Position numbers and translations under genes: made by a program
The notes under the pieces: model-generated
Databases searched by the model: none
What the model was told of the DNA's origin: nothing
Seen by the model: only the letters and a program-made list of their open reading frames with translations
Shown here: positions 3,038 through 63,424 of the stretch, piece by piece
Layout: every line of letters begins with the position of its first letter
Numbering within the stretch: the stretch's first letter is position 1
From: Escherichia phage E20
Reading direction: 5' to 3' (one strand)
Sequence record: OP745616
DNA length: 64,000 bases

Positions 3038-3259
3038 ATGTTGTTCAGCACTAATTATGGTATTTGCCCGATTTGCAATAAAGGAAGAGGAGTTGCTAAT
3101 CATAAGAAGTGTAGTCGTATCCTACAGAAACAACGGAACCAGGAAGAATGGGATAAGTTGTTAAATAATCAGCATAAAGAAGAGAACCAACAGATGGCTG
3201 TTAAGGCATCTACTCAACGTATTCGCCGTATTAACTATATACAGGGGTATCAGAAATGA
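3038..3259 (+). CDS. Hypothetical small protein with CxxC zinc-ribbon-like motif (73 aa)
   Basis: CPICNKG...HKKC pattern. Confidence 0.45.
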   Translation: MLFSTNYGICPICNKGRGVANHKKCSRILQKQRNQEEWDKLLNNQHKEENQQMAVKASTQRIRRINYIQGYQK

Positions 3260-34291: not shown

Positions 34292-34364
34292 TACCCGGTA
34301 GGCTTAGTGGCAAAGCCCCACTAGTAAACTAACTAGGACGCAGGTTCGAATCCTGCCCGGGTAA
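34292..34364 (+). tRNA. tRNA-like gene; canonical acceptor, D and T arms, but anticodon loop folds as 6 nt
   Basis: Perfect 7-bp acceptor TACCCGG/CCGGGTA, D-arm GGCT-TAGTGGCAA-AGCC, T-arm GCAGG-TTCGAAT-CCTGC; anticodon stem CTAGT/ACTAG with loop AAACTA. Confidence 0.45.
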
Positions 34365-34373
34365 TCATACTAT

Positions 34374-34447
34374 GTCCACTTAGCTTAGACTGGGAAAGCA
34401 ACCGACTAATAATCGGAAGGTCACTGGTTCAAATCCAGTAGTGGACA
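34374..34447 (+). tRNA. tRNA, anticodon AAT by hand fold (would read Ile codons if A34 modified); needs tRNAscan confirmation
   Basis: Perfect 7-bp acceptor GTCCACT/AGTGGAC, D-arm GCTT-AGACTGGGA-AAGC, anticodon arm ACCGA-CTAATAA-TCGGA (C32 U33 ... A37 A38), T-arm ACTGG-TTCAAAT-CCAGT. Confidence 0.55.
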
Positions 34448-34683
34448 CCCATTCAGCAGTAACATAGTCCTGATTGCATAGCACTCTAAAGACAACACTG
34501 GTAAGACAGTCCAGTGGCTGCTAATGTATTGTTATTCCCCTCGACGGGAATTTCGCTAGTGAAGGTAACACTTAAAAATCCAAACCTACGTCTTACTACT
34601 ATCGGGCTATCAACCCACGGTCGCTTAACCCACTAGTGGTAGTAGTTTGACGGCCTGCCTCGTTGACTGCGTTAAAGTCACTA

Positions 34684-36635: not shown

Positions 36636-36666
36636 AGCCCCTCCTTTGAGGGGCTTTTTTATTTTA
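36636..36666. terminator. Bidirectional terminator at the convergent junction of plus-strand genes and minus-strand late genes
   Basis: AGCCCCTC-CTTT-GAGGGGCT flanked by A-rich upstream and TTTTTTATTTT downstream; overlaps vRNAP stop. Confidence 0.7.
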
Positions 36667-39600
36667 GTTTACTAAGTTCATCCAAGGGTTCAGGTTGTGA
36701 GCACGAAGACCCTGACCAAAGCCCCAAGAGTAATCCAGACTACCCTTAGCAGCAATACTAAAGATGTTGTCCTGAATAGGTAAGCCAACGTTACCAAACA
36801 TGGTAGGGGTTGGAGCCAGCATCGCCATTGCTGCATGAACCGGGTTGTTACGAATCATGGACACTGCAACCTTAGCTGAACGAATCTTAAAGTTGTAGAA
36901 CCACATCAAACCAACACTTTCCATATACCCACGGAAGCGACCTGGTAAACGGTCATAGTTAACGAACTCTTCCGTTACACGTCCCAGTGCTTCTTCACGA
37001 GTCTTACCTTTACGCTGAGTCAGTTCATCATAGATGATTGCTTTAGCGATGAAGTCGGAGTACTCAACAGTCTTCTGGATACCCTGGAACAAAGCAGTAT
37101 CCTTAGTGATAAGTGCATAACGACCAGCAGTACGTACAGACTTAGGTAATTTATCAGCCAGCTTTTCCATGTATTCGTGAAGTTTGCCCTCAGTAATCAA
37201 GATGTCATCACGACCAATACCAGCATCTGCAATTGAAGAGAACTCACCTGCTTCTAACAGAGGCCAGATACTCATACGCTTATGGCTATCAGTAATAGAC
37301 TGAATTTCAGCCTTAAGTTTACGAATCTGGTTCGGGTTAGTAGCTGCACGTAATTCTGCTTCTGCATCTACCTGACGCAGACGAGATTTAAGATACTGGT
37401 TAATCTCAGCAGTTTTCTGTGGAATGCTCTTAGCAATATTCTTAACAGGTACACCACGAGCAACCATCTGGTAAAGGTTAGCCAAGAAGTTAACAGCAGG
37501 TACGACTACTGACTTAACTACAATCAGCGTCTTAGCTTCTTTAACTAAGTTTTGAACCAGGTTCTCACCACCCATTGTGTACTTATAAGCACGGTTGCCA
37601 AATACACCCAGCATAGCTTTCTTGAAGGTATCCAATGTTTCCGGGGACCAACGAGAATTACCTGACCAGGCATCTCCAACGGAAGCTGCACGATAACCTA
37701 GTGCATCATTCAGCATGTCACGACGTACCCACAGTTCACCTTCACCGAACAAACTCTCTGCTTTCTGGCGTGTTTCACTATTCATCAGCTTAAGAGCATC
37801 AGCAGTTACTGGGTCCAGTTTAGAACCAAGAAGGTTAACGTACTGGGACTTATTAGCAGAAGACATCTTAATGTCATTCTCATACATGCTATGCAGGTTC
37901 TCAATCAGCATATCGTTGAAACGCTGAGCCTTAGCTTCTTCCACCTGACGACCACGCCATACACCTATTGCACGGGCAAGATGGTTTTCACCTTCAATGT
38001 GTTTCAGCATGTTAGGGTCAATGGATTGTTCATAGGCAACCACATTACCTTTATCGTCATATACAGGCATCAGTGGTTCATTACCACGTTCCCCACGAGC
38101 CAATGCTTTAGTGATACGGTCTACGGAAGGCTTGTCAGTAATACGACCAGCTACCATGGAACCCATCGTAAAACCTGTGCCGATGTCTACACCACCAGCA
38201 GTATTGCGAACGTTTTGTAGGATACCCTGTGAGAAAGGAGCTTGTGCCTGTACCGGTGCAAAATAGTAGCTACGTGCTGGACCACGATTAGCGGAGCTAC
38301 CTTGATAAGTACCCAGACGTACATAGGACTTCTCAATCAAATCACCAAACTGACTATCTTCAGCAACAATCAGATTAACACCTTGTTTAGTCTCACTCGG
38401 GATATGTCCTTTGTACTGGTTCAAGGTTGCACGCATATCAGATTTGGCTTTAGCCATTTCATCTTTACGCTGACCAACCAGGTAAGAAGTAGCAAAATCC
38501 ATTCCATCAACTTCTGATTGAGCCAGTGAAGATAACATCTCACGGTCGGACTTGTTCATTGCTTCCAGTGCATACAGGGTAATCAGCTTATCCAGTTGAG
38601 CTACATCTACAGTAGAACGAGCAGCCTGACGTTCGCCCAGCATACGGGAGATTGCAGTAGCATTACGCAGCAGGTTATTACCGACTGTACCGTTAATCAT
38701 GAACTGAGCCAGTTGCTTAGATTTACGACTAATCAGAGGCCAGTTACGGCCTGCTTGTTTCTGTAAATCTGCTTCCAGCTTATTCACTTCACGGTCAACA
38801 ATCTTCTGGTCAGACAGCAAGTCACGGATTTCAGCCAGAGACATGGTGTCACGCAGAACAGCCAAATCAGTTTTACCCATACCAGTGTGCATTGCTTTCC
38901 ACTCATCGTTAGTCAGCTTACGGCTGAACTTAGATGCGATAGTGGTAGGCAGATGTTCACGGAACTGCTGACGATCTGCCTGCACCTGTGCACGCACTGC
39001 TTTAATCAAATCGTATACAGAAGCATTACTCTTAGTACGACCAGTTAAGTCATTAACCAGGTCATGGAAAGGTTGCCATACCTTACCCTGGTTCATTGCA
39101 GCCATAACACCTTCAGCTACGATTGCACCATTCTTCTCTGTAGCAATAGCAGCTATCAGTTGTGCAGCATGAGCAGCACCTTTGACCAATGGATTCTTGG
39201 TATTAGCTGCAACTTCACGAGCACTTTCTAAAGCACGGGTAGACAGTGCATCAATAGAATCCACCAGATACTGGTTAGAACGGTCAATAGCATTACCACT
39301 AGGAGTAGCAACAGAATCATATAATGACTGTGCATTGAGGCTAGTCTGCATGATTGTTTGAGCCAGTGCATCCATACCTTCCTGTACGTTGGTAGCTTTA
39401 GTGTCACCTGCTACACGGGCATTCAAGCTAGACATTGCAGCAGTACCGATGTTAGTCAGCATTGCATCAATGGTATTCCCAGATTTCTTATCTGCTTTCA
39501 TAACAGGAATGTTAGCCAGTACGTTACGTACTTCTTCGCTTACCATTGCCAGACCAACAAAGGTAGGCAGTAAGGAAGAACGACCCTGTGCGTCAAACTC

Positions 39601-42600
39601 AATATTGTTAGCACCCATGATGGTATCGAACTTCTGCTGAGCATAGTAACGGTCAGCTGGGTTAGTGCTATCCGGGTCAGCCATGAATGCTTCAACTGTC
39701 AGGTTCTTAGTAACGTGTGCATAGTATTCCTGTGCCCGAGAAAGAGCAGCCGGACTAATAGCAGCTTCAATAGCCAAAGCAGCAACGATATTAGTGAACA
39801 GGCGTTGTTCCTGCATATTCATAGTAAAGCCATGAGCCTGAACATCACGGGTTACTTTAGTTGCATTCACTACTGCATCAGAGAACTTACCTTTACGAAT
39901 TACTTGCTGTACTGGTTCAGAACCAATGTAGTTAGTAATCAGTTTGTCAAAAGTCTGTCCCAACTCTTCCAGACGGATATTGTCACCATACGCCTTGTTA
40001 TGGAACAAGGTAGTGTCTTTGGATACAGCAGCCGTAGGAGCCTGTCCACGCATAACTACAGAAGAGTTAAACAGCAAGCCGGAGAACATATCATCTGCAT
40101 TAGCAGGTGCTTTCTTACGACCAAATACCAGACGCTTGATTGCCTCATACACAGACTGAACCATAGTTTTCAATGCAGTGGTTTTCTTCTGCTTACCAAT
40201 CAGTTCACGGTTGGTTAAACCCCAAGCCATATACTCATTCAGTGCAGCAGCTTTAGCCATTGCAGGTTCAATAAAGCCATTAGACAAGTGACCGTTAATG
40301 GTATTGAGAGCATCAGCATATGCTTCACGTACTGCCGGGGATTCATTCTTAACATCCAGAGTACGGAACTGGTTCATCAGGTCTTCAATATTCTGAACTG
40401 CTTCATTAGGAGTACCCTCATAGTGAGCCAGTACAGATTCAAAAGTAGAAGCATGTACTAATTCATGAACCAGAGTCTCTAAGGAAGGGGTAACTAAGTA
40501 GATGGTCTTATCATCAAAGTTAGTCCAGCCATATGCATTACCAGCTTCGGCAGCTTCAATATCTTCTGGTGCTGGGCGAGTAATGTTCTTCTCAATAGCA
40601 TAAGCATCCAGTTGAGCAGGAGTACCGTAAACAACCTTGTAGTCTTTAGCAGCAAGGGATTTCTGTACTTCTTTCAATACTGCTTGCTGTTCAGGAGACA
40701 TCTCTTTAGCCAGCCTAGTGATAGCAGTATTGGACAGCATACGTACACCAGACTTCAGTACACGACCAACCTGTTCCATTGCTGGTACTTCTTTAACAGG
40801 TACTTCTTTCACTGGTTCTGCTTTAGCAGCACGTACTGCATCGCGACGCTTGTTTAATTCAGCATCAAACAGTTCGTTCAGCTTAGCTACTTGCTGGTCT
40901 ACAGTCAGACCTTCCAGAGAGATTTTACCGTTGTTCACATAAGGAGCACCCACAGCAGCCATCTGATCAACAGTGGTCTGTACCTGGTTCATTACTTTGT
41001 GGCGAATATCTACACCCAGAGCAATGTTACGCAGGTTACGTTCAATAAGGTTAACACCGGAATTCTTAATCATATCAATCTTATACTGCCTGTCTCCCTC
41101 AACACGACTGATATGAGAAAGCTGTTCAAAATCCAAAGCAGAACGGGCAATGTCATCAATTGTCTTATCCGACAACTTATTAAAGTCTACGTTCTTCATG
41201 AACTTAGAGAAGGAGTCATAAACATTCTTGATAGGATTACCCTGCCAAGAAGTATATACAGCCTCATTAGCTTTACGGCTTGCATCAGTGATGTCATTGA
41301 TACCAATGTTCATACCATCAAAGATTTTCAGGGTATTCTTCGGTGCACCTTTCATAGTAGAAAGGGTCTGCATCATCATGCCATCACCAGTACCAATGGT
41401 CATAAATGGAATACCTGCAACACCTGCTTGTGAAGGAGCATAGACGCTCATTGGCACACGCATACGGTCATCTAAGTTGGTAGCCAGTACTTGGTTAGCA
41501 ACATCAGTATTCTCACTACCAGCAATGTAGAAAGTTTGTGAGCCAGTCTCAATCATTGGAGCCAGTGGAGATAATGATTCCTGGATTTCATTAAGTTCTT
41601 TCTGCGTTAAGAAATCGCCCTTCTTCCAGGTTGGGTCTTTTTCTTTTTCTGCTAGTTTAGCCTGTACTGCTTGTTGGAACATATCCTGCAATACTAAAGA
41701 CTGAATTTGAGTAGCCTTCTGCAAGTTCTCAGTGGAGTGCATCAGACCTTCACCAACAGTGAACCGGATACTTTGTCTCATTGGTTCAACGAAGAAGTGC
41801 AACATATTCTCTTGTAAGTTCTTAAGGGCATCACCAGATACAGTAAACTCCTGGGGATCTAACTCACCAGTCAGAGCACCATCTACCTCCTTAATAAATA
41901 ACTTACCTTTACGCTTGGCTGGAATTTTACCAGTCAGTGCTTCCATAGAAGTAAGGAAAGTATCCAGCATAGCCTGAGCATCCGCTTCAGACGCAGCCTC
42001 CTTACCAAACATTGCCATAGCTGGGGAAATGCTAGGGTCAGCAGCACGTGCTTGCAGAACGTCACTGAGGCGTTCATAGATGGTATCAGTAATTGCACTA
42101 ACCATCTTGCCAGCAATACCACGAGCACCAGAACCATAGATGGTAATGGTCAGTGGGTTTTTAGCTATACCACGTTTCAGGTCCAGAGTACCGTCTTCAT
42201 TCAGGTTAAAGTCTTTAATGAACAGGTCCATTAACTTCTGGAGATGATTCATCTGGCTCATAATCGGAACGTTGTTACGGTAAGCACTACGTAATTCATT
42301 TAGATAGAATTGCAAACTATTGGTAGATGCTTCATATAAGTCAATGCTGTCATCATATGAATGATGTTCATTCATAGTCTTACCGGCTTTACCGAAGAAC
42401 AAGCCACCCTTAGCAGTATTCTTAATCCAATTTTGGGTGAACTTACCACCAGTCATTAATACCATTGCGTTGATTGGGCCGTTGGTTACACCATCAGCTT
42501 CGACATACAGTGGGGTATTAAAGTTGGCACGGTCATCGCTGTTCAGGTAACGGGCATATTCCATCAGAGCCATGAGAGCTACAAAGGATTTGTTATCACC

Positions 42601-45600
42601 CAGGGAGGACTTCAGAATATCTACTGCATCTGTGGGTAAGTAACCAGACTTATTAAATTCAACCATCATATCAACAGCAGGCTTCAGATTGCCTTCCAGA
42701 GCTTTGGTCAGATTTTCAGACATAGCTTCACGGGACATTTTATGTACCTTAATGCCTAATGCCTGAGCCAGTCCCAGCTGGAAGTCAGAGAACGCTTGGC
42801 TATTTTCATTACTCAGGTCAATAGTAGAGAAGGTTGGCAGAATTGCTTCACGAACCAGCTTACTGGATTGTGGGTTGTTCTTACCAAGCATCTGCATACG
42901 ACCTACTCGGGTCATGTTATAGCCATAGTGAATGGGGGTATCCAAACCATTCTCTTGTTCTTTTAGCTGATTAATTAAACCGAACAAGGAATCATATGCC
43001 ATAGATACTGATAAGTTCTTACCTTCCAGTGATTTGGCATTGTTCTTATTCAGCAAATCGGGATTAAGAGTACCAGCACCCATTAGTTCCAGAATGCTGT
43101 CTCGACCCAATGCTTCATAGAAGTTAACCATCGGCATGTGTACACGGAACTCAGTAGCCTGTTCAGCTTTCAGTGCAGCTTTCTGTTCGGGGGTATTCTT
43201 AACAGCAGGATTACGTAACTGAGTTTGGGCCACGGAAGGAATGTCGTCACCAAAGTACATTTTCTCTTCCGGATTTACCAACACAGCTTCTTCAATTGCT
43301 GTAGGGAAATTATTAATAGGGTCTTTATCAGCCAACTTATTAATAGTGTACAGACCAATAGTCTTATTAGAGTCCGGGTCAATCTCAGACACATCCAGCA
43401 TAGTCTCTGTAACTGCACCCATCTCAATGAGGGAAGACAGAATCTCTGTAGCCATTGCCACTGGAATGCCTTTTGTATAACCCAGTGGTGCATTAGGGTT
43501 ACGATTCAAACCCCAATAAGATTCAATCTTCTGAGCCAGTGAGCTAGTAGCTTCGACCAGGGTCTGGGCATTCTCAAATTCAGCCAGAATACTTTCTGGT
43601 AACAAGGATGCTTCTACTCCAGTAATGGCAGCTACGTCTTTTATGTCTTTAATGGCAGCATTCTGTGCAGCAGTCAGTCGCCATTGCAGACCAGCAAGCA
43701 CGGCAGTCTCTAACAACTGGTCATTGAACTTAAAGGTATCACCATCTTTTTCAACGATATTCAGCAGTTTGCCACCTACCCAACGGTTAGCTTCAGTACC
43801 TTCTGCAAAACGTTTACCAACGTTCTTATTAGCAAGGAACTTAGCCAGTCGTTCAGACAGAGTAGTCTTCAGTGTTTCCCCAAAGTCCATCAAATCTTGG
43901 TAACGTTCTAACACATCACCCGTGAGAGCGTTATTTTCTTTTTGAGTGAATGCTTCAAAGCGAGCAGCAGAAGACAGTGCTTGCTTAATATCAGCTAAAG
44001 GAGATTCAGAACCAATGGTACGGGACTTGGGTTCTTCTGGCAGGGTAAATGCTTTCAGGAACTGGTTCGGTGTCTTTTCATTGTTATAGACAGGGAACAC
44101 TGTTTCCATCTCAGAAAGAGGTTTGCCACCTACTGTATAATCTGCTTTTAGCTGAGCCAGCGATACTTCATCTTTCTCCACGTTGTTAGTGTTACGGCCA
44201 GAGGTATCTACACCAACCAGAATCTGTGCATTATTGGCTTCAACGAAAGATTGAACAGTATTGAATTGTTCAGCGGTCAGCTTTTGATTATCAAACAGTT
44301 GTAGGGACACAAACGGTTGTTCACTGCCTTTATAGAAAGTAGAGCGAATAGAACCAGTATCCAAAGACATATCACGATAGCCATCATGCCCAAATACGTC
44401 AGACAGGCTGATATGGTCGCCATTAGAACCAACCACAGTACCATCAGCAAACAACCACGGACTCTCTCTACGGTCACCACTCTTATTAAGAGTTTCCTGT
44501 GAAATGGTATTTTCTTTCACATAAGCATCTCTTTCAGATTCAGTAGGTTGCTCAATGGTATCCTCATTAGTGAGGGTAGCATCTACTGTTTCAGGCTTAG
44601 TAGTAGAAACTTCTTCTGTTTTTGGGCTAGTCTCCTTAGTAGGAGCAGTCTTATTTTCTACCACTGGTTTAGCTTTAGGCTGTACAGTAGTAGTGTCCTC
44701 TTGCACTGGTGCAGGAGTTTCATCAACCTGATTCACTGGTTCATTAGTCTGTTGAGACTGAGTGGCATCAAGACCACCTTGACGGAACTCTTTAACTACC
44801 TGGGCAGCAGGCTTGTTCAGACGTGAATCCAACGAGGTAACTTTCACATGAGAAACATTAAGCTCCGGGTAAGCCGTAGCAAGTGCATTAGCAATATCAG
44901 CTACGGTCTTGGCTTCCAGTCCTACTTGCTGGGCAAACTTAACAGACTTGGTATCATACGGATTGACACCGAGGCCAGTACGACTACGTACCCATTCACG
45001 GGAAGGCGAGAGAGCCTGATAATGAACAGACTTATTCTTATCCGCATTCCCCGAAATCAGATGCTCATTCAACGCTCCGACCTTATTCTGCATGTGCTGG
45101 GCGAACTTCATAAAGTCGCTCAGATAAGCGGAGGCCAAATCGAAGTTACCAGAGTTATACGCAGAACGAATGCGTTTCGCATGTTGCAACGCAGAGTACT
45201 GTCCTTCATTAGAACGAGACTCATCGGTTTTAATCTGTTTACTAACAATGTCTTGAGGACGTAAGCCTAGTTCTTCTGCTTTAGCGTCGAACTCACGTGC
45301 ACCCTGTAACAAGGCAGCAGCAGATTGCAGGGCAGCACGTTGACGATTCCCTAATGTAATCTTACCTTCACTCGCATGTTTCAGAATCATGTTAACTGAA
45401 TCTGCATCCAGTACTTCTGGAGACACATCAGCAGCCATAGCAATATTGTTTGCTTGGGCTTGATTAGCTTCTTCAGTAGCTTTCAGCTTACCTGCTTCAG
45501 CCTGTTCCTGAATCATGGAATGGATGGCACGGAATGCACGAAGTACTTTAGGGGTATTCTGTACGTTAGCCATCAGGCCAGAGAACTGGTCTACGATTGC

Positions 45601-47496
45601 AGCAGCAGGGGAACCTTGTTCCAGATTAGCCAGAGCACCCGGGTCACGGTTAATGAAGCTATCCATAGACATGATGTTGTCGTACATCTGGATTGCAGCT
45701 TCCATTTGAACGTTGGGGTCTTCGGCAGTATTAACCAAGTCAGCCATCTTCTGAATAGCTTCTACACGGTTAGTGGAACCAGAAACAGCTTCACGGATTA
45801 CTGGGTTAACTTGTTCCAGTTCTACTGGGTCAAACTTCATTGCCTGAGTTAAGTCAGCAGCATACTGGGTAGCAGCAGCTTTCTCTTCCGGAGAAATATC
45901 CATTGCATCTACTGCTTCCTGTACAGTTGCTTGTGCTTGTTCTGCCTGAGCAGCAGCTTCCTGTGCAGCAGCATTAACCGTAGCATCAGCTACAGGGGAT
46001 GCTTGTTCATTACGCTTGGCAACTTCTTCACCACGTTGAACCAGAATGTTAGTAAGAGGAGATGCAGCTTTTGCTAGTGTTTTACCAACCAGAGAAGCAC
46101 CAGCCAGGGTAGTACGAAGAGTAGGGCCAGCAGCAGCACCGGCAGCTTTAACAGTTGCACCAGGGACTTGAGCAACTCCAGCACTACCGAAGCCATAAAG
46201 TGCACCAAGACCTGCTTGCTCACCAACCCCTTTGAGGGTGTCACGGGATGCATCAACGTTTTCTTTGATTGCAGTATTCTGTGCGAACTGACCAAAGCCG
46301 GATTGAATACCTTCCTCTACAGTTTCACGCAGCATATTAGAACCAGCACCTGCCAGTGAACCTACCTTAAGTGGGTTAAGTTCAAAGCGAGATACCAGTG
46401 GGCCGGTAGCAGCAGCAACTGGAGCAGTTAAGCCAGCAGCAATGATACCTGTTTCAGATGCAGTCTGACGACGTGCTTCATCAGGAGATAAACCATCAGC
46501 AATATGCTGTTGGTAAACAGGAGACTTACTTGCCAGTTCTTGGTGGGACATCTTCATGATTTCAGAAGCAGTCTGTTGGTATGCACCACCAGCTTCCATA
46601 CCACCGATTGCAATAGCAGGTGCAGCAACACGACCAGCAGACAGTGCAACCTGTGCAGGACGTGAACCTAACCCAGCAGCTAAGGTAATACCCTTAACAG
46701 CTTTATCACCACCTACCATTACTTTACCGAGTGCAGATACACCACGAATAAGTGGACCACCGGTAAAGAGGGAACCAACACCTTCACTCAGTCCGTCAGA
46801 GGCAGCCATACCATTATCAAGTGTATTAGCAACAGAATCGAAAGCATCACGACCAATACGAGACAAGGAGGCAACCAAATCGTTCTCCCCATTTTTGATG
46901 TCTTGTTCATAAAGTTTCTGATTCTTTTGAGCAGAAATCTGGTTCTGATTCTGAACAACCTTACGGGTAGCATTCAGTGCATCAGACTGTAGATTGTGTA
47001 CGCCTTCATTCAACCAATCCATCCCGGAAGCAATGGTTGCCCCGGCATTATCATTGACCAAACCTGTGCCAAGAGCAGCAATGCCCCCAAGGGTATTAGC
47101 AACACCAAGACCAACACCAGAAAGAGTATCGCCAAATGCTTCTGCGTTAGTACGTTGTTTAGATAAGTCCTGACGTACAACATCCGCAGCATTAGCTCGG
47201 CTATTAAGAATTTGTAGACCTTGCTCATTACCGTATTTATTAATGATTTCTAATGGGGAGGCTTGAGTGAAATCTGCCTGAAGTGAACCTGGTTCGAATG
47301 CACCGATTCCAAGATTACCTACACGTCCGGTCTGGAGATTGTAAGCATTCTCTGGGGTTAATTGGAAAGGGATTTGCCCTTGTGCAGCTTGCTTCTGAGA
47401 GGTTGCAGTAGAGACATCGACTCGCTTAGCATTAGTGATGCTGTCTGCGAAACCTGCCAGACGGTCAAATGTTGACATAGCATGTTTCCTGTTCAA
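36664..47496 (-). CDS. Virion-encapsidated giant RNA polymerase (vRNAP, N4 gp50-like), 3610 aa
   Basis: Single 10.8-kb ORF; central T7-like RNAP motifs (A-like EADGVTNGPINAM, B-like KNPLTITIYGSG, C-like KIFDGMNIG); position at distal end of late operon. Confidence 0.9.
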   Translation of the reverse strand: MNRKHAMSTFDRLAGFADSITNAKRVDVSTATSQKQAAQGQIPFQLTPENAYNLQTGRVGNLGIGAFEPGSLQADFTQASPLEIINKYGNEQGLQILNSRANAADVVRQDLSKQRTNAEAFGDTLSGVGLGVANTLGGIAALGTGLVNDNAGATIASGMDWLNEGVHNLQSDALNATRKVVQNQNQISAQKNQKLYEQDIKNGENDLVASLSRIGRDAFDSVANTLDNGMAASDGLSEGVGSLFTGGPLIRGVSALGKVMVGGDKAVKGITLAAGLGSRPAQVALSAGRVAAPAIAIGGMEAGGAYQQTASEIMKMSHQELASKSPVYQQHIADGLSPDEARRQTASETGIIAAGLTAPVAAATGPLVSRFELNPLKVGSLAGAGSNMLRETVEEGIQSGFGQFAQNTAIKENVDASRDTLKGVGEQAGLGALYGFGSAGVAQVPGATVKAAGAAAGPTLRTTLAGASLVGKTLAKAASPLTNILVQRGEEVAKRNEQASPVADATVNAAAQEAAAQAEQAQATVQEAVDAMDISPEEKAAATQYAADLTQAMKFDPVELEQVNPVIREAVSGSTNRVEAIQKMADLVNTAEDPNVQMEAAIQMYDNIMSMDSFINRDPGALANLEQGSPAAAIVDQFSGLMANVQNTPKVLRAFRAIHSMIQEQAEAGKLKATEEANQAQANNIAMAADVSPEVLDADSVNMILKHASEGKITLGNRQRAALQSAAALLQGAREFDAKAEELGLRPQDIVSKQIKTDESRSNEGQYSALQHAKRIRSAYNSGNFDLASAYLSDFMKFAQHMQNKVGALNEHLISGNADKNKSVHYQALSPSREWVRSRTGLGVNPYDTKSVKFAQQVGLEAKTVADIANALATAYPELNVSHVKVTSLDSRLNKPAAQVVKEFRQGGLDATQSQQTNEPVNQVDETPAPVQEDTTTVQPKAKPVVENKTAPTKETSPKTEEVSTTKPETVDATLTNEDTIEQPTESERDAYVKENTISQETLNKSGDRRESPWLFADGTVVGSNGDHISLSDVFGHDGYRDMSLDTGSIRSTFYKGSEQPFVSLQLFDNQKLTAEQFNTVQSFVEANNAQILVGVDTSGRNTNNVEKDEVSLAQLKADYTVGGKPLSEMETVFPVYNNEKTPNQFLKAFTLPEEPKSRTIGSESPLADIKQALSSAARFEAFTQKENNALTGDVLERYQDLMDFGETLKTTLSERLAKFLANKNVGKRFAEGTEANRWVGGKLLNIVEKDGDTFKFNDQLLETAVLAGLQWRLTAAQNAAIKDIKDVAAITGVEASLLPESILAEFENAQTLVEATSSLAQKIESYWGLNRNPNAPLGYTKGIPVAMATEILSSLIEMGAVTETMLDVSEIDPDSNKTIGLYTINKLADKDPINNFPTAIEEAVLVNPEEKMYFGDDIPSVAQTQLRNPAVKNTPEQKAALKAEQATEFRVHMPMVNFYEALGRDSILELMGAGTLNPDLLNKNNAKSLEGKNLSVSMAYDSLFGLINQLKEQENGLDTPIHYGYNMTRVGRMQMLGKNNPQSSKLVREAILPTFSTIDLSNENSQAFSDFQLGLAQALGIKVHKMSREAMSENLTKALEGNLKPAVDMMVEFNKSGYLPTDAVDILKSSLGDNKSFVALMALMEYARYLNSDDRANFNTPLYVEADGVTNGPINAMVLMTGGKFTQNWIKNTAKGGLFFGKAGKTMNEHHSYDDSIDLYEASTNSLQFYLNELRSAYRNNVPIMSQMNHLQKLMDLFIKDFNLNEDGTLDLKRGIAKNPLTITIYGSGARGIAGKMVSAITDTIYERLSDVLQARAADPSISPAMAMFGKEAASEADAQAMLDTFLTSMEALTGKIPAKRKGKLFIKEVDGALTGELDPQEFTVSGDALKNLQENMLHFFVEPMRQSIRFTVGEGLMHSTENLQKATQIQSLVLQDMFQQAVQAKLAEKEKDPTWKKGDFLTQKELNEIQESLSPLAPMIETGSQTFYIAGSENTDVANQVLATNLDDRMRVPMSVYAPSQAGVAGIPFMTIGTGDGMMMQTLSTMKGAPKNTLKIFDGMNIGINDITDASRKANEAVYTSWQGNPIKNVYDSFSKFMKNVDFNKLSDKTIDDIARSALDFEQLSHISRVEGDRQYKIDMIKNSGVNLIERNLRNIALGVDIRHKVMNQVQTTVDQMAAVGAPYVNNGKISLEGLTVDQQVAKLNELFDAELNKRRDAVRAAKAEPVKEVPVKEVPAMEQVGRVLKSGVRMLSNTAITRLAKEMSPEQQAVLKEVQKSLAAKDYKVVYGTPAQLDAYAIEKNITRPAPEDIEAAEAGNAYGWTNFDDKTIYLVTPSLETLVHELVHASTFESVLAHYEGTPNEAVQNIEDLMNQFRTLDVKNESPAVREAYADALNTINGHLSNGFIEPAMAKAAALNEYMAWGLTNRELIGKQKKTTALKTMVQSVYEAIKRLVFGRKKAPANADDMFSGLLFNSSVVMRGQAPTAAVSKDTTLFHNKAYGDNIRLEELGQTFDKLITNYIGSEPVQQVIRKGKFSDAVVNATKVTRDVQAHGFTMNMQEQRLFTNIVAALAIEAAISPAALSRAQEYYAHVTKNLTVEAFMADPDSTNPADRYYAQQKFDTIMGANNIEFDAQGRSSLLPTFVGLAMVSEEVRNVLANIPVMKADKKSGNTIDAMLTNIGTAAMSSLNARVAGDTKATNVQEGMDALAQTIMQTSLNAQSLYDSVATPSGNAIDRSNQYLVDSIDALSTRALESAREVAANTKNPLVKGAAHAAQLIAAIATEKNGAIVAEGVMAAMNQGKVWQPFHDLVNDLTGRTKSNASVYDLIKAVRAQVQADRQQFREHLPTTIASKFSRKLTNDEWKAMHTGMGKTDLAVLRDTMSLAEIRDLLSDQKIVDREVNKLEADLQKQAGRNWPLISRKSKQLAQFMINGTVGNNLLRNATAISRMLGERQAARSTVDVAQLDKLITLYALEAMNKSDREMLSSLAQSEVDGMDFATSYLVGQRKDEMAKAKSDMRATLNQYKGHIPSETKQGVNLIVAEDSQFGDLIEKSYVRLGTYQGSSANRGPARSYYFAPVQAQAPFSQGILQNVRNTAGGVDIGTGFTMGSMVAGRITDKPSVDRITKALARGERGNEPLMPVYDDKGNVVAYEQSIDPNMLKHIEGENHLARAIGVWRGRQVEEAKAQRFNDMLIENLHSMYENDIKMSSANKSQYVNLLGSKLDPVTADALKLMNSETRQKAESLFGEGELWVRRDMLNDALGYRAASVGDAWSGNSRWSPETLDTFKKAMLGVFGNRAYKYTMGGENLVQNLVKEAKTLIVVKSVVVPAVNFLANLYQMVARGVPVKNIAKSIPQKTAEINQYLKSRLRQVDAEAELRAATNPNQIRKLKAEIQSITDSHKRMSIWPLLEAGEFSSIADAGIGRDDILITEGKLHEYMEKLADKLPKSVRTAGRYALITKDTALFQGIQKTVEYSDFIAKAIIYDELTQRKGKTREEALGRVTEEFVNYDRLPGRFRGYMESVGLMWFYNFKIRSAKVAVSMIRNNPVHAAMAMLAPTPTMFGNVGLPIQDNIFSIAAKGSLDYSWGFGQGLRAHNLNPWMNLVN

Positions 47497-59380: not shown

Positions 59381-59908
59381 CTATTCAAAAAGTTTACGGT
59401 CAGCCTGAATTTGTTTACCCAACTCAATTAGTTGGTTGTCACGGAGTCTAACAGTTGCCCGGAGTTCTTCAACCAAACGTCTGCCTTCTTCAAGACTGTT
59501 GTCGAGTCTGGCTGCATGGCTTGCAAGACTTCTGCACTCAAGGGTTCCGGCTTCGGCTTGACGTTTATATACCGATGCTCGTCTTTCAGACTGTTGCATC
59601 CGGCTGTCGTAATCACTGCTAACGCGAGCAAGCTCGCTTGCGTAATTACTCTCAGCCGTCTGCAACCGGGAAGTGAGTAACCCGACTTCATAACTATGGT
59701 TTCTTTGGAGAGCATTGTATTTGTCCTGTAGTTTTTGTATTGCCTTCAGGTCTTCAACCTTTTGGACATCCCACTTCTTTTGAACAGTAGACTGCCCATT
59801 GGAATTGCCCCAAAAGTAAATGGTGGCCCCGAGGACCACCACCAGAAGATAAGGCCAACCTTTAGAGATTAGCATCTTCATTACATGCCTCCAGTGGTAC
59901 ATTACCAA
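59381..59908 (-). CDS. Rz-like i-spanin (N-terminal TM + periplasmic coiled coil), 175 aa; start may be an internal Met
   Basis: TM helix [16 protein letters not shown] then charged coiled-coil; directly downstream of endolysin; contains embedded lipoprotein ORF. Confidence 0.6.
59428..59691 (-). CDS. Rz1-like o-spanin lipoprotein embedded in Rz in an alternative frame, about 88 aa
   Basis: Signal peptide with lipobox AVITTAG|C, then proline-rich KPKPEP segment; entirely inside Rz gene. Confidence 0.55.
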   Translation of the reverse strand: MKSGYSLPGCRRLRVITQASLLALAVITTAGCNSLKDEHRYINVKPKPEPLSAEVLQAMQPDSTTVLKKADVWLKNSGQLLDSVTTN

Positions 59909-60497
59909 TTCGGTTAGCTACCCAACCATACGTAAAGTCTGGCATGTTCAATGAGGTGTAGTGGTTCAGCTGTTTAGCATCAAGTAACTTAATCACTACC
60001 TGACATGCTGCAACTTTGCCTCGTTTTTTCTGTAATGCTTTATATGCATTAACAGTACCTGCACCGACTTTACCATCAACTTGTATTTTAGGGTAGTCTT
60101 TGCCATCACGGGACATTTCATTAAGAGATTGCTGCAACCACTTAGCTGGTCTGGTTACACCGGTATTAACACCAGCATCAACCAGTTTATGTGTTACAGC
60201 AGGAGATATATCAGCGAAGGCTACGAAGTTAGGCTTAAGTACGTAGTCATCAATGTATATCTCAGCAGCCATCTCTTTCGATAAACCCTTCATGGAACCA
60301 TTCCAACCATACTCCGTAGCCAGAACTTCTTTATGAGACTTAGCTACTGATTGGGTAATACCATGATTAGTTTCCCCACCTGGGTCACGGGGATTGTTTA
60401 CGTACCCTCCTTCCATATAAAACACTGCCCCCAGAATAGCAGCGACAACTCCTCCCACTGCACCACCTTTTGCAGCAAGTTTCTGTTTAGCTTTCAT
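59862..60497 (-). CDS. GH108-family N-acetylmuramidase endolysin with N-terminal membrane anchor (SAR-type candidate), 211 aa
   Basis: EGGYVNNPRDPGGETNHGIT catalytic signature; N-terminal GGAVGGVVAAILGAVF hydrophobic helix; C-terminal peptidoglycan-binding-like region. Confidence 0.8.
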   Translation of the reverse strand: MKAKQKLAAKGGAVGGVVAAILGAVFYMEGGYVNNPRDPGGETNHGITQSVAKSHKEVLATEYGWNGSMKGLSKEMAAEIYIDDYVLKPNFVAFADISPAVTHKLVDAGVNTGVTRPAKWLQQSLNEMSRDGKDYPKIQVDGKVGAGTVNAYKALQKKRGKVAACQVVIKLLDAKQLNHYTSLNMPDFTYGWVANRIGNVPLEACNEDANL

Positions 60498-60813
60498 GAG
60501 AATCTTCCTTTGGATGGAATCGTATTAGTCTGCCTACAATGTTTAGGGCAAACAAAGCGATTGTAATGCTGGAACCATGGGGAATATCTTCAAGGATGTG
60601 ACGAGGTAGTCCTGTTAGCATTGGTTGGATAATATCTACAGCAGAAAACAGAATTAACCCAAACGTACTAATCTGAACAGATGCCCACTTCCAGGACTTC
60701 TTCCAGTTAGGTACTAGCCCTATCTTTCTTTTTAGCCTGCAAACCATGCGAATATCTCCCGTCTTGCAGCAGCCAATACACCAATAATTGCACCTGCTCC
60801 AGCCCACACCCAC
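60487..60813 (-). CDS. Holin-like protein with two TM helices (up to 108 aa; likely starts at internal Met)
   Basis: TM1 VQISTFGLILFSAVDII, TM2 SSITIALFALNIVGRLI; immediately upstream of endolysin. Confidence 0.45.
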   Translation of the reverse strand: MGVGWSRCNYWCIGCCKTGDIRMVCRLKRKIGLVPNWKKSWKWASVQISTFGLILFSAVDIIQPMLTGLPRHILEDIPHGSSITIALFALNIVGRLIRFHPKEDSHES

Positions 60814-61064
60814 TTACCAAAAATTCCAGCACCAGCAACTTTATGTTTAATGGTGATGAACTCTTCGATAGTAGGTTCAGACTTAGTGATGCTCTCCTCT
60901 ACCCGTTTAAGTCGGGTACTAAGATCGCCCATAGACTCACTTAGTTTTTTAATAGACTCTTCCATTTTCTCCCTTTCCCTCGCTTCTCGGGTTTGGTTTT
61001 CGAAAATGTTTCTCAATCTCTCTTCGAGTCTGGCTAGAGTTACGTTATCTGGTTCATTTCCCAT
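60732..61064 (-). CDS. Coiled-coil protein with C-terminal Gly-rich TM helix (lysis-cassette membrane protein, possible holin/antiholin), 110 aa
   Basis: C-terminal VAGAGIFGKWVWAGAGAIIGVLAAA. Confidence 0.4.
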   Translation of the reverse strand: MGNEPDNVTLARLEERLRNIFENQTREAREREKMEESIKKLSESMGDLSTRLKRVEESITKSEPTIEEFITIKHKVAGAGIFGKWVWAGAGAIIGVLAAARREIFAWFAG

Positions 61065-61140
61065 AGGGACTTTCTCAGGTTAGTTAAGTCGTGATTGACT
61101 GAAACAGTCTACATAAAGGATTGTTTGGGATACAACAAAA

Positions 61141-61170
61141 AAGCCCCCAGACGGGGGCTTTGTTTTATTT
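61141..61170 (-). terminator. Rho-independent terminator after tailspike gene
   Basis: On minus strand AAAGCCCCC-GTCT-GGGGGCTTT then TTTTTGTTG. Confidence 0.65.
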
Positions 61171-63424
61171 AGGTGTTATCAGCAACTACCTCAAGTACTC
61201 CGTTATTAGAACGAAGGCGTTTGTAAGTACTATCCCCCACATCTCGGAGTATAATCCCTTTGGTAGCATACATAGTACCGAAACGTCCATCCTTAGAACC
61301 AATATCCTGCAAGGAATCTGTTACTGCTGTCATAACCCCTGCAACACGATTAACTTTACGGGCATACCAGACATTTTTGCCAACATCTTTATCCATAGCA
61401 ACATCGAAGTTAAAGTTTGCAGTATTGGTAGATAAACCATTCATTGCTGCACTAGAAGTATCAACAGTAATCTTGAGAGTACCTCCAGTAAGTCCATCAG
61501 CAGAAACGTACAACTCTGCATTCTTAAAGTTACGAATGCCACCTAGACCATTGGCAAAGGTAACTTTAGATGCATCACCATAAACAATTAACCGATTCTC
61601 TTTGAATCGTTCTGCGTAAAGACCGAAAGGAGTAGCGTCCTGATCTTCAATATTAATTGTTGCATGGTTAGTGTTAATGGTGGGTGGGATACCAAATGTA
61701 ATAGTATTCCCTTTAAACTCTTTAACTTTGAAATTCAAACGATACTCATCAGCATAATCATTTGCATATCTGTTCTGAAGTTCACAATCAATAAAGCTAT
61801 AACACTCAAAACCCATAGCAGCAGGCCAGCCAGTATCAATAATACTGCCTATGATGGTTGTGCCTACAAACTTAATATTACGGGCATTACCAGCATTGGA
61901 TACAGCACCCTCAGAGTGCATACTATGTAGCACGCCACCCACAACCAGAATATCGTTAACAGTCCCCGGTACGGATACAGTCTGGAATGCACACTTACCG
62001 GTGTTAACAATTTTAGGGTTAATAACACGAATGTTGTAAGGGTTTCCCCCTTCAGCTTCAATATCAATACCTGCTTCCGGTCCGGTATAATGAGTACCAA
62101 TCCCACCAGCTTTATTGCCTGAGCGGGTAATTACTGGATTAATGATATCAATGTTAGCTCCACCAGTCAGGGAGTAGCAGTTGCGCCCACAGGAATCCCA
62201 GTAACAGTCTTCAATAACAGTGCGTGGAACAATATCCAAGAAACTGAAGCTACCGGTAGATTGATGATATAAGCCATCTACAGGCGAATTAAGGTATTTA
62301 TGTCGGTAAACACGAGCACCTGCTGACTGGTTAATCCACATGTTATAACAAGGAATCTGATAACCAGTGTTACCAAACTTACCCCCCCATACAGCAGAGG
62401 CTAAGTTACCATCACTGGTCCCACCATTAATTACGACGTTAGGTGCTTTGTACAGTTTAATAAGAAAACCTTGGTAAGCCATATAGCTATAATCAGGGGT
62501 TTCAGCTACAACATCCGGTGCAATAGAACCAGTAACAGGATCAAAAGCCCCTAAACGCATACCGTCATTAATCTTAAGTGTCCAGTTACTCATCTCCAGT
62601 TCGATATTAGCATCCGTCATATGAATGGAGAACCAGCCTTTAGCAGAAGCATCTGTCCAGGCACGCTGCTCATAGGAAGGTTTATAAGAACCACCCTGAC
62701 CAGTAGAACCAGTGAGATACTGGGAACCTACTAAACTAGTGCCAGCAGGGAATATCACCTTAACCGGTTCAGTTACCTGTGTGCTTAAGTATTGACCCAA
62801 TTCCCAAAGAGCGTCTGCGTTATCAGCAGAGTCAACAGTTACACCAAAATCCGTAGCATAGATTACACGTCTACCCATTAAATCCATGTTAGCAGCTACG
62901 TTGGTATTAATTGCATTAGGCATACGAACATAGGGAACTTCTTCAGACTTAACTAATGGGCTTAACTTACTCCAGGCATCATTAGCTACACCACCTGAGT
63001 TTTCTGGTGTAGAGGATGCCGGGACAACTTTAGGGAATGCACCATTCCAAATATAATACTCACCATTATGAATCAGTCTTTGGTTTTTAACGGTAAGGGT
63101 AGCCCCAGTAGTAAATGAACCGGGAGAGTTAATATACTCCTTACGTTCTACAGCCAGAGCACCTAAGTCAACATTACCAGCAGAGTGAACTAATACCCCA
63201 GCAGGACTAAGACTTACAGCAGTAACACCTGAACCAATATCAGCAGGTAAGGAGTAAGCACGCTGTGACGCTTTGTCATAGATGACTTTATAACCGCTTA
63301 GTACAGCACCAGTAGAGAAGTAAACAACCTCAGATTGCTTAACCCCAAAGTGACGGGCTACTGCTTGTTTGTTGGTTAAGATTCCAGTTGAACCCTTACC
63401 ACCTTGTGAAAACATTTCGTTCAT
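61169..63424 (-). CDS. Tailspike/tail appendage protein with predicted right-handed beta-helix (possible polysaccharide depolymerase), 751 aa
   Basis: Gly/Asn/Thr/Val-rich repeats typical of beta-helix tailspikes. Confidence 0.5.
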   Translation of the reverse strand: MNEMFSQGGKGSTGILTNKQAVARHFGVKQSEVVYFSTGAVLSGYKVIYDKASQRAYSLPADIGSGVTAVSLSPAGVLVHSAGNVDLGALAVERKEYINSPGSFTTGATLTVKNQRLIHNGEYYIWNGAFPKVVPASSTPENSGGVANDAWSKLSPLVKSEEVPYVRMPNAINTNVAANMDLMGRRVIYATDFGVTVDSADNADALWELGQYLSTQVTEPVKVIFPAGTSLVGSQYLTGSTGQGGSYKPSYEQRAWTDASAKGWFSIHMTDANIELEMSNWTLKINDGMRLGAFDPVTGSIAPDVVAETPDYSYMAYQGFLIKLYKAPNVVINGGTSDGNLASAVWGGKFGNTGYQIPCYNMWINQSAGARVYRHKYLNSPVDGLYHQSTGSFSFLDIVPRTVIEDCYWDSCGRNCYSLTGGANIDIINPVITRSGNKAGGIGTHYTGPEAGIDIEAEGGNPYNIRVINPKIVNTGKCAFQTVSVPGTVNDILVVGGVLHSMHSEGAVSNAGNARNIKFVGTTIIGSIIDTGWPAAMGFECYSFIDCELQNRYANDYADEYRLNFKVKEFKGNTITFGIPPTINTNHATINIEDQDATPFGLYAERFKENRLIVYGDASKVTFANGLGGIRNFKNAELYVSADGLTGGTLKITVDTSSAAMNGLSTNTANFNFDVAMDKDVGKNVWYARKVNRVAGVMTAVTDSLQDIGSKDGRFGTMYATKGIILRDVGDSTYKRLRSNNGVLEVVADNT

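Follow-up and report, generated by a model that had tools for sequence, protein, structure and literature searches.

The lysis genes of bacteriophage N4, gp63-gp62-gp61-gp60/gp60a, have been dissected experimentally by Awuah et al. (bioRxiv 10.1101/2025.11.12.688109). In N4, gp63 is a pinholin that times lysis. It complements a defect in the S21 pinholin but not in S105, and it makes small lethal holes that release SAR (signal-anchor-release) endolysins but not soluble ones. Mutation of its residues T65 and T71 speeds up lysis. Gp62 can be deleted; it forms holes slowly and is a regulator, not the primary holin. Gp61 is a SAR endolysin by experiment, being associated with the membrane and activated by the pinholin, and it complements R21. 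It works with either holin type, and without a holin it gives a slow, gradual lysis. Acidic substitutions in its SAR domain lead to rapid lysis. Finally, gp60 and gp60a together complement amber mutants of lambda Rz/Rz1 (same preprint).

The S21 pinholin with R21, and also Lyz of phage P1, share this logic: a tethered, Sec-exported endolysin is freed by the depolarisation that a small-hole holin causes. R21 and P1 Lyz resemble T4 lysozyme and belong to GH24, unlike the endolysin described below, which is GH108. Gp61 of N4 was reportedly treated by Stojkovic and Rothman-Denes in 2007 (J Mol Biol). The N4 enzyme was already named a SAR endolysin in papers from 2015 and 2018. The pinholins differ as well, in that S21 has two transmembrane domains (TMDs), while the gp63 type has a single TMD, at its C-terminus, and a long helix in the cytoplasm.

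The lambda spanins are Rz, a type II protein of the inner membrane whose periplasmic domain is helical, and Rz1, a small outer-membrane lipoprotein whose gene is in the +1 frame and lies entirely within that of Rz. Proline does abound in lambda Rz1, where it makes up about a quarter of the 40 mature residues, and the protein forms intermolecular disulfides.

Closer to the DNA studied here, Escherichia phage vB_EcoP_G7C carries annotations for gp60, gp60', gp61, gp62 and gp63 (GenBank HQ259105, with a paper published in 2012). G7C has been reported to lack lysis inhibition, unlike N4.

The window analysed here is a stretch of 64,000 nucleotides from Escherichia phage E20 (OP745616). It comes from a Gamaleyavirus genome that is 98% identical to Escherichia phage vB_Eco_F22. 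Five tightly overlapping genes lie on the minus strand at 59381-61064, flanked by a tailspike gene and a portal gene. The initial annotation had read this region as a lysis cassette, and this is confirmed. The order it gave along the minus strand (a coiled-coil/TM protein, a two-TM protein, a GH108 muramidase, and Rz with Rz1) was found again in the reading frames. Its two headline claims, that the endolysin is a candidate SAR enzyme and that the gene of an Rz1 lipoprotein is embedded in Rz, are both supported. The features are as follows, in the direction of transcription.

61140..61161, minus strand: intrinsic-terminator-like hairpin, AAAGCCCCC-GTCT-GGGGGCTTT then TTTGTTG, past the tailspike gene, at the upstream boundary of the cassette
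60732-61064, minus strand: gp63-like protein, predicted pinholin, 110 aa; 60% identical to N4 gp63, PHROG 5211
60487-60747, minus strand: gp62-like protein, predicted two-TMD regulator, 86 aa from ATG 60747; DUF7940, PHROG 1356, 56% identical to N4 gp62
59862-60497, minus strand: endolysin, candidate SAR type, 211 aa; PF05838, PF09374, 70% identical to N4 gp61
59381-59881, minus strand: Rz, gp60-like i-spanin, 166 aa; PHROG 6197, 58% identical to N4 gp60
59819..59843, minus strand: terminator-like hairpin, GGTGGTGGTCC-TCG-GGGCCACCATT then TACTTTTGG, in the sequence coding for the Rz TMD
59428-59691 (or 59428-59715), minus strand: Rz1, gp60a-like o-spanin, in the +1 frame inside Rz; lipobox, mature part 80% identical to N4 gp60a

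These are the same five genes as in N4, in the same order and in the same tail/portal setting. The BLASTP E-values for the orthologs of gp63, gp62, gp61 and gp60 are 7e-52, 6e-38, 4e-105 and 2e-60, the first of these covering all 110 residues. In N4 and E20 alike, EGGY comes straight after the SAR helix, the Receiver motif PTIEEFITIKHK is present, the mature o-spanin has 56 residues, the Rz1 stop codon is 47 nt ahead of that of Rz, and there is a hairpin in the region coding for the Rz TMD. With high confidence, the cassette is that of an N4-like (G7C-group) coliphage and encodes a pinholin, a regulator with two membrane helices, a muramidase tethered to the membrane and two spanins, one nested in the other. 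Its mode of action is most likely that of the N4 cassette.

This arrangement is already known. Close relatives carry the annotation and the N4 counterpart has been tested experimentally, which makes the cassette an ordinary one. Across it, G7C, Bas96, F22 and Mimir124 (all Gamaleyavirus) have 94-98% nucleotide identity to E20, and within this group Rz1 is 98-100% identical, with point substitutions only.

Relatives were collected by tblastn against GenBank phages, after which 15 loci were fetched. A scan of IMG/VR with an Rz alignment gave 11 loci, most of them near-identical. Gene order is kept between the tail fibre or tailspike gene and the portal gene in those relatives (10 of the 12 fetched) where gp63-like and gp62-like genes were both detected. 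Gene order, domains, topology signals, orthology and the conservation of the embedded frame across genera are direct observations on these sequences. None of the five cassette proteins matches an NCBIfam model above its cut-off.

Stop and start codons overlap along the cassette, and Shine-Dalgarno sequences stand ahead of gp62, gp61 and Rz, which suggests translational coupling. The gp62-like gene overlaps the gp63-like gene by 16 nt and the endolysin gene by 11 nt, and its ATG at 60747 has a GGAG 8 nt ahead of it. Rz and the endolysin gene overlap by 20 nt, with a GGAGG 6 nt ahead of the Rz start at ATG 59881. Neither the gp62-like nor the gp63-like gene shows an evident dual-start motif of the lambda kind.

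The gp63-like protein matches PHROG 5211 (E 4e-49). It starts with an amphipathic, coiled-coil helix that is predicted to be cytoplasmic (residues 10-61, nt 60882-61037). Next come the 'Receiver' motif, SEPTIEEFITIKHKV, at residues 62-76 (nt 60837-60881), and the only TMD, close to the C-terminus at about residues 77-100 (nt 60765-60836), with a hydropathy peak at 81-99. Within residues 31-61, the residues L, I, V, M and F fill 89% of heptad positions a and d, and 0% of the others. AF2 places helices at 10-61 (pLDDT above 90), 66-78 and 83-109; this was a single-sequence prediction with low confidence in the TMD, and is used for the helix call only. The Receiver motif matches that of N4, SAPTIEEFITIKHKV, in 14/15 residues, and both T65 and T71 are conserved. 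By this homology the gp63-like protein is predicted to be the pinholin, with its membrane orientation likewise taken over from N4. One difference is the alternative start of N4 gp63 at Met17, where E20 has Leu. Regulation may also differ from that of N4 despite the kept Receiver motif, given that G7C lacks lysis inhibition.

Within Gamaleyavirus, the N-terminal helix of gp63 comes in divergent allelic types, with a mosaic breakpoint inside the gene.

The gp62-like protein has two TMDs by hydropathy, at residues 22-40 and 59-77. Its 21 N-terminal residues include 7 Lys/Arg and are strongly basic, which indicates an N-in/C-in topology. It matches Pfam DUF7940 (PF25612; E 6e-14, 52.7 bits against a cut-off of 27) and PHROG 1356 (E 1e-28). 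From its likeness to N4 gp62, it is predicted to be an accessory lysis regulator with a slow, holin-like activity.

The roles could in principle be the other way around, with the gp62-like protein as the lysis-timing holin (class II, with an S21-like topology) and the gp63-like protein accessory or unrelated. PHROG 1356 does carry the label 'holin', and two TMDs in an N-in/C-in topology are just what S21 has. The records of G7C, Bas96, F22, Moo19 and Pokken also call this gene 'holin', with gp63 hypothetical or 'tape-measure'. In addition, N4 gp62 kills after CCCP treatment and eventually frees endolysins (bioRxiv 10.1101/2025.11.12.688109). Such database labels are, however, predictions propagated by homology, and the reversal of roles is improbable. 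The initial annotation had called the two-TM protein 'holin-like' and left the coiled-coil protein without a label. Both proteins stand, but the roles probably do not: in N4 it is gp63 that is the pinholin and gp62 the dispensable regulator. The preferred reading thus has the gp63-like protein as pinholin and the gp62-like protein as its regulator.

A longer gp62-like form of 108 aa, starting at GTG 60813, was considered as a conserved product (it corresponds to a 109-aa form mentioned for N4) and rejected. Unlike in N4, this extension begins at a GTG without a Shine-Dalgarno sequence, and a stop codon closes it in Moo19, in the Klebsiella phage and in an IMG/VR relative. That it nevertheless looks conserved in comparison with N4 is due to the gp63 TMD, whose conserved coding sequence it overlaps.

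The endolysin consists of a Glyco_hydro_108 N-acetylmuramidase domain (PF05838, residues 24-113, E 7e-20) and a PG_binding_3 domain (PF09374, residues 117-196, E 3e-7). The closest solved structures are those of Salmonella TtsA-type GH108 muramidases from type 10 secretion systems (PDB 6v3z and 6v40; for 6v3z, E 3e-27 over residues 23-197). These have the same two-domain architecture, but they are bacterial secretion accessories and not phage lysis enzymes, and the SAR helix of E20 lies outside of the aligned region.

Ahead of the catalytic domain is the SAR-type helix GGAVGGVVAAILGAVFYM (residues 11-28, nt 60414-60467), in which 9/18 residues are Gly or Ala and none are charged. The best window of 19 residues has 11 Gly or Ala. 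Four Lys occur in residues 1-10, and EGGY follows directly after the helix (residues 29-32, nt 60402-60413). The helix is conserved in 12/12 relatives; the equivalent of G12 in N4 is G15. The claim of a candidate SAR endolysin, a GH108 enzyme behind an uncharged, Gly/Ala-rich, Lys-flanked helix, thus agrees with the sequence and with N4 gp61. Sec export and release on depolarisation would follow by analogy with that protein.

Four Lys and then a hydrophobic stretch are also how the n-region and h-region of a signal peptide are laid out. This would suit a rival reading in which the enzyme is secreted in the conventional way, its Sec signal peptide is cleaved off, and control depends on something other than membrane tethering. 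The -3/-1 rule even yields two formal cleavage sites, I-L-G23|A24 and L-G-A24|V25. Against this, the sequence has no polar c-region; the hydrophobic stretch continues (VFYM) right up to EGGY. Such a high share of Gly and Ala is usual in SAR domains, and the 70%-identical N4 protein is membrane-associated, needs no more than an acidic residue in the helix to become a rapid lyser, and is activated by the pinholin (bioRxiv 10.1101/2025.11.12.688109). Conventional secretion is therefore very improbable. Because formal sites exist even though the polar c-region is absent, a 'cleavable' call by SignalP would not be decisive. The tethered SAR form is kept as the candidate.

Rz matches the PHROG 6197 family 'Rz-like spanin' (E 1e-77). 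Its TMD by hydropathy is at residues 9-25 (nt 59807-59857), preceded by K2 and K7, in keeping with an N-in orientation. Past this there is a periplasmic helical domain of 141 residues, with one Cys, at 116, and a heptad signal over residues 118-166.

Rz1 lies entirely within Rz, and its stop codon precedes that of Rz by the 47 nt already mentioned. The precursor has 87 aa if it starts at ATG 59691 and 95 aa if it starts at ATG 59715. The start is ambiguous: the first lacks a good Shine-Dalgarno sequence, while the second has an AGGA. The lipobox reads TAG|C; its Cys, encoded at 59596-59598, is residue 32 or 40 depending on the start. The motif fits the PROSITE PS51257-type pattern, although Thr instead of Leu at -3 is atypical; N4 has IVGC here. 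Mature Rz1 has Asn at +2, an outer-membrane sorting residue (not Asp), and 45/56 of its residues (80%) are identical to N4 gp60a. N4 Rz1 has an ATG immediately ahead of its hydrophobic core (MKSLLILLL). This ATG is missing in E20, so that the predicted signal peptide is longer, at 31 or 39 residues.

The initial annotation described Rz1 as having a lipobox TTAG-C and as proline-rich. The lipobox is there. 'Proline-rich' goes too far: Pro accounts for 4 of the 56 mature residues (7%), and these lie together in KPKPEP. In this E20 differs from lambda, as it does in having no Cys beyond the lipid-modified one. The general layout is nonetheless that of lambda Rz/Rz1, to which the E20 pair has no detectable sequence similarity, with only weak PHROG and DUF2514 matches.

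This out-of-frame gene stays open and conserved, lipobox Cys included, in 12/12 relatives, which come from Escherichia, Shigella, Klebsiella, Achromobacter, Burkholderia, Stenotrophomonas, Erwinia, Xanthomonas, Pseudomonas and Alcaligenes phages. All of these also keep the motif YINVKPK.EPL. Identity of mature Rz1 ranges from 46 to 84% in these relatives, and in each of them the embedded frame is better conserved than Rz, whose identity goes down to 37%. In the Alcaligenes phage, the two values are 46% and 37%. Third codon positions of Rz vary in 10/56 codons that overlap mature Rz1, against 30/78 outside of it (Fisher p = 0.013). On this sequence evidence, the embedded Rz1 lipoprotein gene is real.

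That the frame arose by chance and is not expressed, with Rz acting alone or another protein disrupting the outer membrane, is effectively refuted by this conservation. The reduced variation at third positions and the joint complementation of lambda RzRz1 amber mutants by N4 gp60 and gp60a (bioRxiv 10.1101/2025.11.12.688109) also speak against it. In its favour, the 105 stop-free codons of the frame are reached in 167/5000 synonymous resamplings of Rz (3%, modestly unusual by itself), ATG 59691 has no strong Shine-Dalgarno sequence and Rz1 matches no Pfam, PHROG or NCBIfam model. Rz and Rz1 would disrupt the outer membrane as predicted from gp60 and gp60a.

Put together, lysis by E20 most likely proceeds like this, where the size of the holes, the release of the SAR helix, the action of the spanins and the parts played by gp62 and gp63 are all carried over from the N4 experiments. 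Sec would export the endolysin, which its SAR helix would tether, inactive, to the periplasmic face of the inner membrane, with the EGGY region beside the membrane. Meanwhile the gp63-like protein would build up in the inner membrane by its one C-terminal TMD, with the coiled-coil helix in the cytoplasm and the Receiver motif in between. At a set time it would open small holes, and the membrane potential would collapse. The two-TMD gp62-like protein would act here as an accessory regulator that forms holes slowly. On depolarisation the SAR helix would exit the bilayer, after which the muramidase would refold and degrade peptidoglycan all around the cell. Rz would sit in the inner membrane as a type II protein and Rz1 in the outer membrane as a lipoprotein, so that their complex bridges the two. 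Once freed from the murein mesh, this spanin complex would disrupt the outer membrane.

The hairpin inside Rz, 19-43 nt past the endolysin stop codon, has a z of -3.5. There is a hairpin at the homologous place in N4 (14 pairs, then T-rich), in Moo19 and in an IMG/VR contig, and in the Klebsiella phage in a shifted register. In 5/11 of its pairs, both sides have changed. The SP5M record annotates this hairpin as 'terminator'. It is possibly an attenuator between the endolysin and the spanin and portal genes. A stronger version is that hairpin and U-rich tract form a functional intragenic terminator or attenuator, kept across Enquatrovirinae by compensatory and partly non-synonymous changes. 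This is a tentative proposal, somewhat more likely to fail than to hold. If true, the hairpin would determine how abundant the pinholin and endolysin transcripts are relative to those of spanin and portal, and might tie read-through to translation where the endolysin gene and Rz overlap. It would then be a regulatory layer of N4-type cassettes that, in the literature found, has been flagged by automatic terminator predictors only and never studied. Together with the mosaic breakpoint in gp63, it could inform how N4-like phages tune lysis timing.

Another terminator-like match occurs at 60423-60444, in the SAR-coding region, and N4 and JWAlpha have similar matches there. Sequences coding for Gly/Ala-rich TMDs are prone to hairpins because GGC (Gly) and GCC (Ala) are reverse complements.

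As a discovery this carries little weight, but it does have practical value for annotation. Databases often label the 110-aa gp63-like gene 'hypothetical' or, wrongly, 'tail length tape-measure protein'; it should be labelled pinholin, and the gp62-like gene needs a more cautious label than 'holin'. Annotators should call Rz at full length and add Rz1, as several near-identical GenBank records are wrong here. It had been predicted that simple gene callers would miss Rz1, and this is borne out by F22 (98% identical) and SP5M, which lack Rz1 and have Rz only as a fragment of 219 nt. The two spanin features are named in only about 6/40 sampled relatives. Among these annotations, Rz1 is an o-spanin in Bas96 and gp60' in G7C, and Mimir124 also has an embedded spanin. 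Gamaleyavirus records differ on where Rz1 starts, giving it 258, 264 or 372 nt.

Late promoters of N4 are atypical. A scan for sigma-70 promoters gave none on the minus strand ahead of gp63, either in the window or in N4. The hairpin at the upstream boundary has 9 pairs, of which 6 are GC. It has a counterpart in Moo19, in Klebsiella VLCpiP4b and in one IMG/VR contig, and the record of phage Pokken annotates a terminator where it stands. Downstream of this terminator, there is a short conserved motif resembling TATAnGTAnTAT.

The lysis cassette of this phage is a real feature, and it had been located rightly and, in essentials, interpreted rightly: the span in the initial annotation, 59381-61064, is bounded exactly by the stop of Rz and the start of gp63. 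Its anatomy, orthology and conservation are directly observed. Five genes lie on the minus strand with overlapping starts and stops, flanked by the tailspike and portal genes. The gene names follow the orthologs in phage N4.

Genes of the cassette and its neighbours, in order of transcription
61169-63424, minus strand: tailspike gene, 751 aa
60732-61064, minus strand: gp63-like, 110 aa
60487-60747, minus strand: gp62-like, 86 aa, 16 nt overlap with gp63
59862-60497, minus strand: endolysin, 211 aa, 11 nt overlap with gp62
59381-59881, minus strand: Rz, 166 aa, 20 nt overlap with endolysin
59428-59691 or 59428-59715, minus strand, +1 frame inside Rz: Rz1, 87 or 95 aa
57102-59372, minus strand: portal gene, 756 aa

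A strong hairpin with a T-run follows the tailspike gene (61140-61161). The Escherichia phage vB_Eco_F22 is 98.2% identical to the cassette region over 2.5 kb, and G7C, Bas96, PhAPEC5/7, ST4 and others are 94-97% identical. All belong to Gamaleyavirus (Schitoviridae, Enquatrovirinae), a genus of N4-like podophages. Elsewhere in the window, a 3610-aa ORF (36664-47496, minus strand) has the size of an N4-type virion RNA polymerase, as would be expected if the window covers most of an N4-like genome. Two adjacent tRNA-like genes are found by ARAGORN at 34292-34451 on the plus strand, one with an undetermined anticodon and the other a tRNA-Ile with the unusual anticodon AAT.

The cassette is already known. 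It was annotated within the genus in the G7C record (HQ259105, paper published 2012) and has been functionally characterised in N4, in a preprint from the Ramsey laboratory that dissects the N4 lysis cassette (bioRxiv 10.1101/2025.11.12.688109). Identity to N4 is 60% for gp63, 56% for gp62, 70% for gp61 and 58% for gp60 (E 7e-52 to 4e-105), and mature Rz1 shares 45 of 56 residues with gp60a.

According to that preprint, E. coli carrying the cloned N4 gp60-63 cluster lyses in about 25 minutes, and gp60/gp60a complement lambda RzRz1 amber mutants. The endolysin gp61 complements amber mutants in both lambda R and phage 21 R, on its own lyses cells slowly without needing a holin, and turns into a rapid lyser once its N-terminal helix gains an acidic residue, for example G12E; for these reasons it is a SAR endolysin, a label the N4 enzyme already carried in 2015 and 2018 papers. 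gp63 substitutes for the S21 pinholin, though not for the large-hole holin S105, its triggering is lethal, and six rapid-lysis mutations, including T65I and T71A, cluster in its TMD-adjacent 'Receiver' domain. gp62 is dispensable, yielded no mutants in the hunt and forms holes only slowly, and the authors therefore named it a 'lysis regulator' (bioRxiv 10.1101/2025.11.12.688109).

The cassette very probably works in the same way, with the individual steps inferred from N4. The muramidase would be exported by Sec and stay tethered to the membrane, until the gp63-type pinholin depolarises the membrane and thereby releases and activates it. The spanin complex would then disrupt the outer membrane, with gp62 as an accessory.

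The endolysin itself matches PHROG 315 'endolysin'. It consists of Glyco_hydro_108 (residues 24-113, E 7e-20) and PG_binding_3 (residues 117-196, E 3e-7), and among solved structures it comes closest to the Salmonella TtsA-type muramidases 6v3z and 6v40 (E 3e-27). Its N-terminus reads MKAKQKLAAK-GGAVGGVVAAILGAVFYM-EGGY: four Lys, then 18 uncharged residues (9 Gly/Ala), then a conserved EGGY motif. This layout is kept in 12 of 12 relatives, and G15 occupies the position equivalent to N4 G12. Signal peptidase could conceivably cleave this helix, given its two formal -3/-1 sites, but a c-region is absent and N4 genetics speak against cleavage. The earlier reading as a SAR endolysin candidate holds, on orthology, SAR-type N-terminus and N4 genetics.

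A terminator-like hairpin lies within the SAR-helix codons (60423-60444, minus strand), with similar matches in N4 (locus 3026-3042) and JWAlpha (locus 1455-1480); the JWAlpha record has a 'terminator' annotated there. Gly/Ala codons probably give rise to it as a by-product, since GGC (Gly) and GCC (Ala) are reverse complements.

Rz matches PHROG 6197 'Rz-like spanin' (E 1e-77); its TMD spans residues 9-25, and its periplasmic part has a single Cys (position 116). Its +1 frame has 105 stop-free codons, which 3.3% of synonymous resamplings of Rz match, so the open frame by itself is weak evidence for a gene. The comparison with 12 relatives says more. These are N4, Moo19, an IMG/VR contig, and phages of Klebsiella, Achromobacter, Burkholderia, Stenotrophomonas (two), Erwinia, Xanthomonas, Pseudomonas and Alcaligenes. 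The frame is open in all 12, and in each Rz1 has a hydrophobic stretch up to the lipobox Cys and keeps a long C-terminal motif. Lipoboxes are IVGC, LLGC, LTAC, ISGC, SSGC, LSAC, LAGC, ISAC and TAGC. Mature Rz1 is also more identical to the window than Rz is in every relative (46-84% versus 37-79%). Among close relatives, third codon positions of Rz vary at 10 of 56 sites over mature Rz1 versus 30 of 78 outside the overlap (Fisher p = 0.013). This conservation is decisive: the embedded gene is more than a chance open frame.

Counted from the ATG at 59691, Rz1 has 31 residues before the Cys at position 32, followed by a 56-aa mature protein, and fits a PROSITE-type lipoprotein pattern. The +2 residue is Asn, which by the +2 rule implies outer-membrane sorting. 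The out-of-frame gene and lipobox Cys claimed initially hold up; 'proline-rich' was overstated, with 4 Pro in 56 aa (7%), where lambda Rz1 is about a quarter Pro.

For the 'true start' that was also claimed there are two candidates. The 59691 ATG has conserved counterparts in N4, Moo19 and the IMG/VR relative, and is without a Shine-Dalgarno. The 59715 ATG has AGGA at 8 nt, and in the Klebsiella relative no other ATG is present; a start there puts the Cys at position 40. N4 has an ATG directly before the hydrophobic core (MKSLLILLL), whereas that ATG is missing in the window. Public records give Rz1 as 258, 264 or 372 nt.

Inside Rz, on the minus strand, lies a terminator-like hairpin of 11 pairs, followed by TACTTTTGG as a U-rich tail (59819-59843, tail to about 59805; z = -3.5), in TMD codons and 19-43 nt past the endolysin stop. 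N4 has a canonical hairpin at the homologous place (locus 2412-2442), with 14 pairs and then T-rich sequence. Moo19 and the IMG/VR contig have hairpins with different stem sequences, that of the Klebsiella phage lies in a shifted register, and those of the Achromobacter relatives lack a U-tract; at the homologous sites of more distant relatives none was found. Across five aligned lineages, 87% of alignment cells are paired and 5 of 11 pairs are changed on both sides; no shuffle equals the real alignment in pairing or in covariation score, and sliding the register leaves 38-56% pairing. The hairpin appears to be kept in Enquatrovirinae lineages by compensatory changes, on five lineages only and in Gly/Ala-rich coding sequence that is intrinsically self-complementary. 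That it is a real terminator or attenuator is possible, with our judgement leaning slightly against.

The gp62-like protein matches Pfam DUF7940 (E 6e-14) and PHROG 1356 'holin' (E 1e-28). Its very basic N-terminus and two hydrophobic segments imply an N-in/C-in topology. It had been taken as the holin-like component, but its N4 ortholog is not the primary holin. That role would fall to the gp63-like protein, labelled coiled-coil/TM at first but not recognised as a pinholin, which it is by homology. It belongs to a function-unknown family, PHROG 5211 (E 4e-49). Single-sequence AF2 prediction gives helices at 10-61 (confident), 66-78 (short) and 83-109 (C-terminal). Within residues 31-61, LIVMF occupy 89% of heptad a/d positions and none of the others, and the sole hydrophobic peak is at residues 81-99. 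The Receiver motif, directly before the C-terminal TMD, is SEPTIEEFITIKHKV in the window versus SAPTIEEFITIKHKV in N4.

Gamaleyavirus subgroups (window/G7C/F22 versus Mimir124/IME11 versus ECBP1) are 69-71% identical in the gp63 N-terminal helix (residues 1-60, about 60880-61064). In gp63 residues 61-110 (60732-60880), gp62, gp61, Rz and Rz1 they are mostly 94-100% identical, with ECBP1 gp62 (84%) as the exception. Megablast matches of divergent subgroups end near 60902-60914, so gp63 contains a mosaic breakpoint, beside the variable tailspike module.

No sigma-70 consensus promoter was found in the gap that separates the upstream terminator from gp63 (61075-61100). A short minus-strand motif there resembles TATAnGTAnTAT(T); it also comes after the terminator hairpins of Moo19, the Klebsiella phage, the IMG/VR contig and N4, fits more loosely in the window, and may be an element of a late promoter.

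Existing annotation is uneven. G7C labels gp60 and embedded gp60' 'putative Rz/RzI spanin', gp61 'N-acetylmuramidase', gp62 'putative holin' and gp63 'hypothetical'. The embedded spanin is 'o-spanin' in the Bas96 record and marked manually in Mimir124, and of the 40 relatives sampled, two spanin features are entered for only about 6. Simple gene callers do miss Rz1, as initially predicted: the F22 and SP5M records lack it and cut Rz to 219 nt, in SP5M because the Rz hairpin is annotated as a terminator. Homologs of gp63 in OP870143 (F22), NC_070850 (Moo19), PP100844, OQ181210 and PV565043 are labelled 'tail length tape-measure protein'. This label does not suit a 110-aa membrane protein and seems to be a misannotation that has been propagated; their homology to N4 gp63 would make these proteins pinholins.
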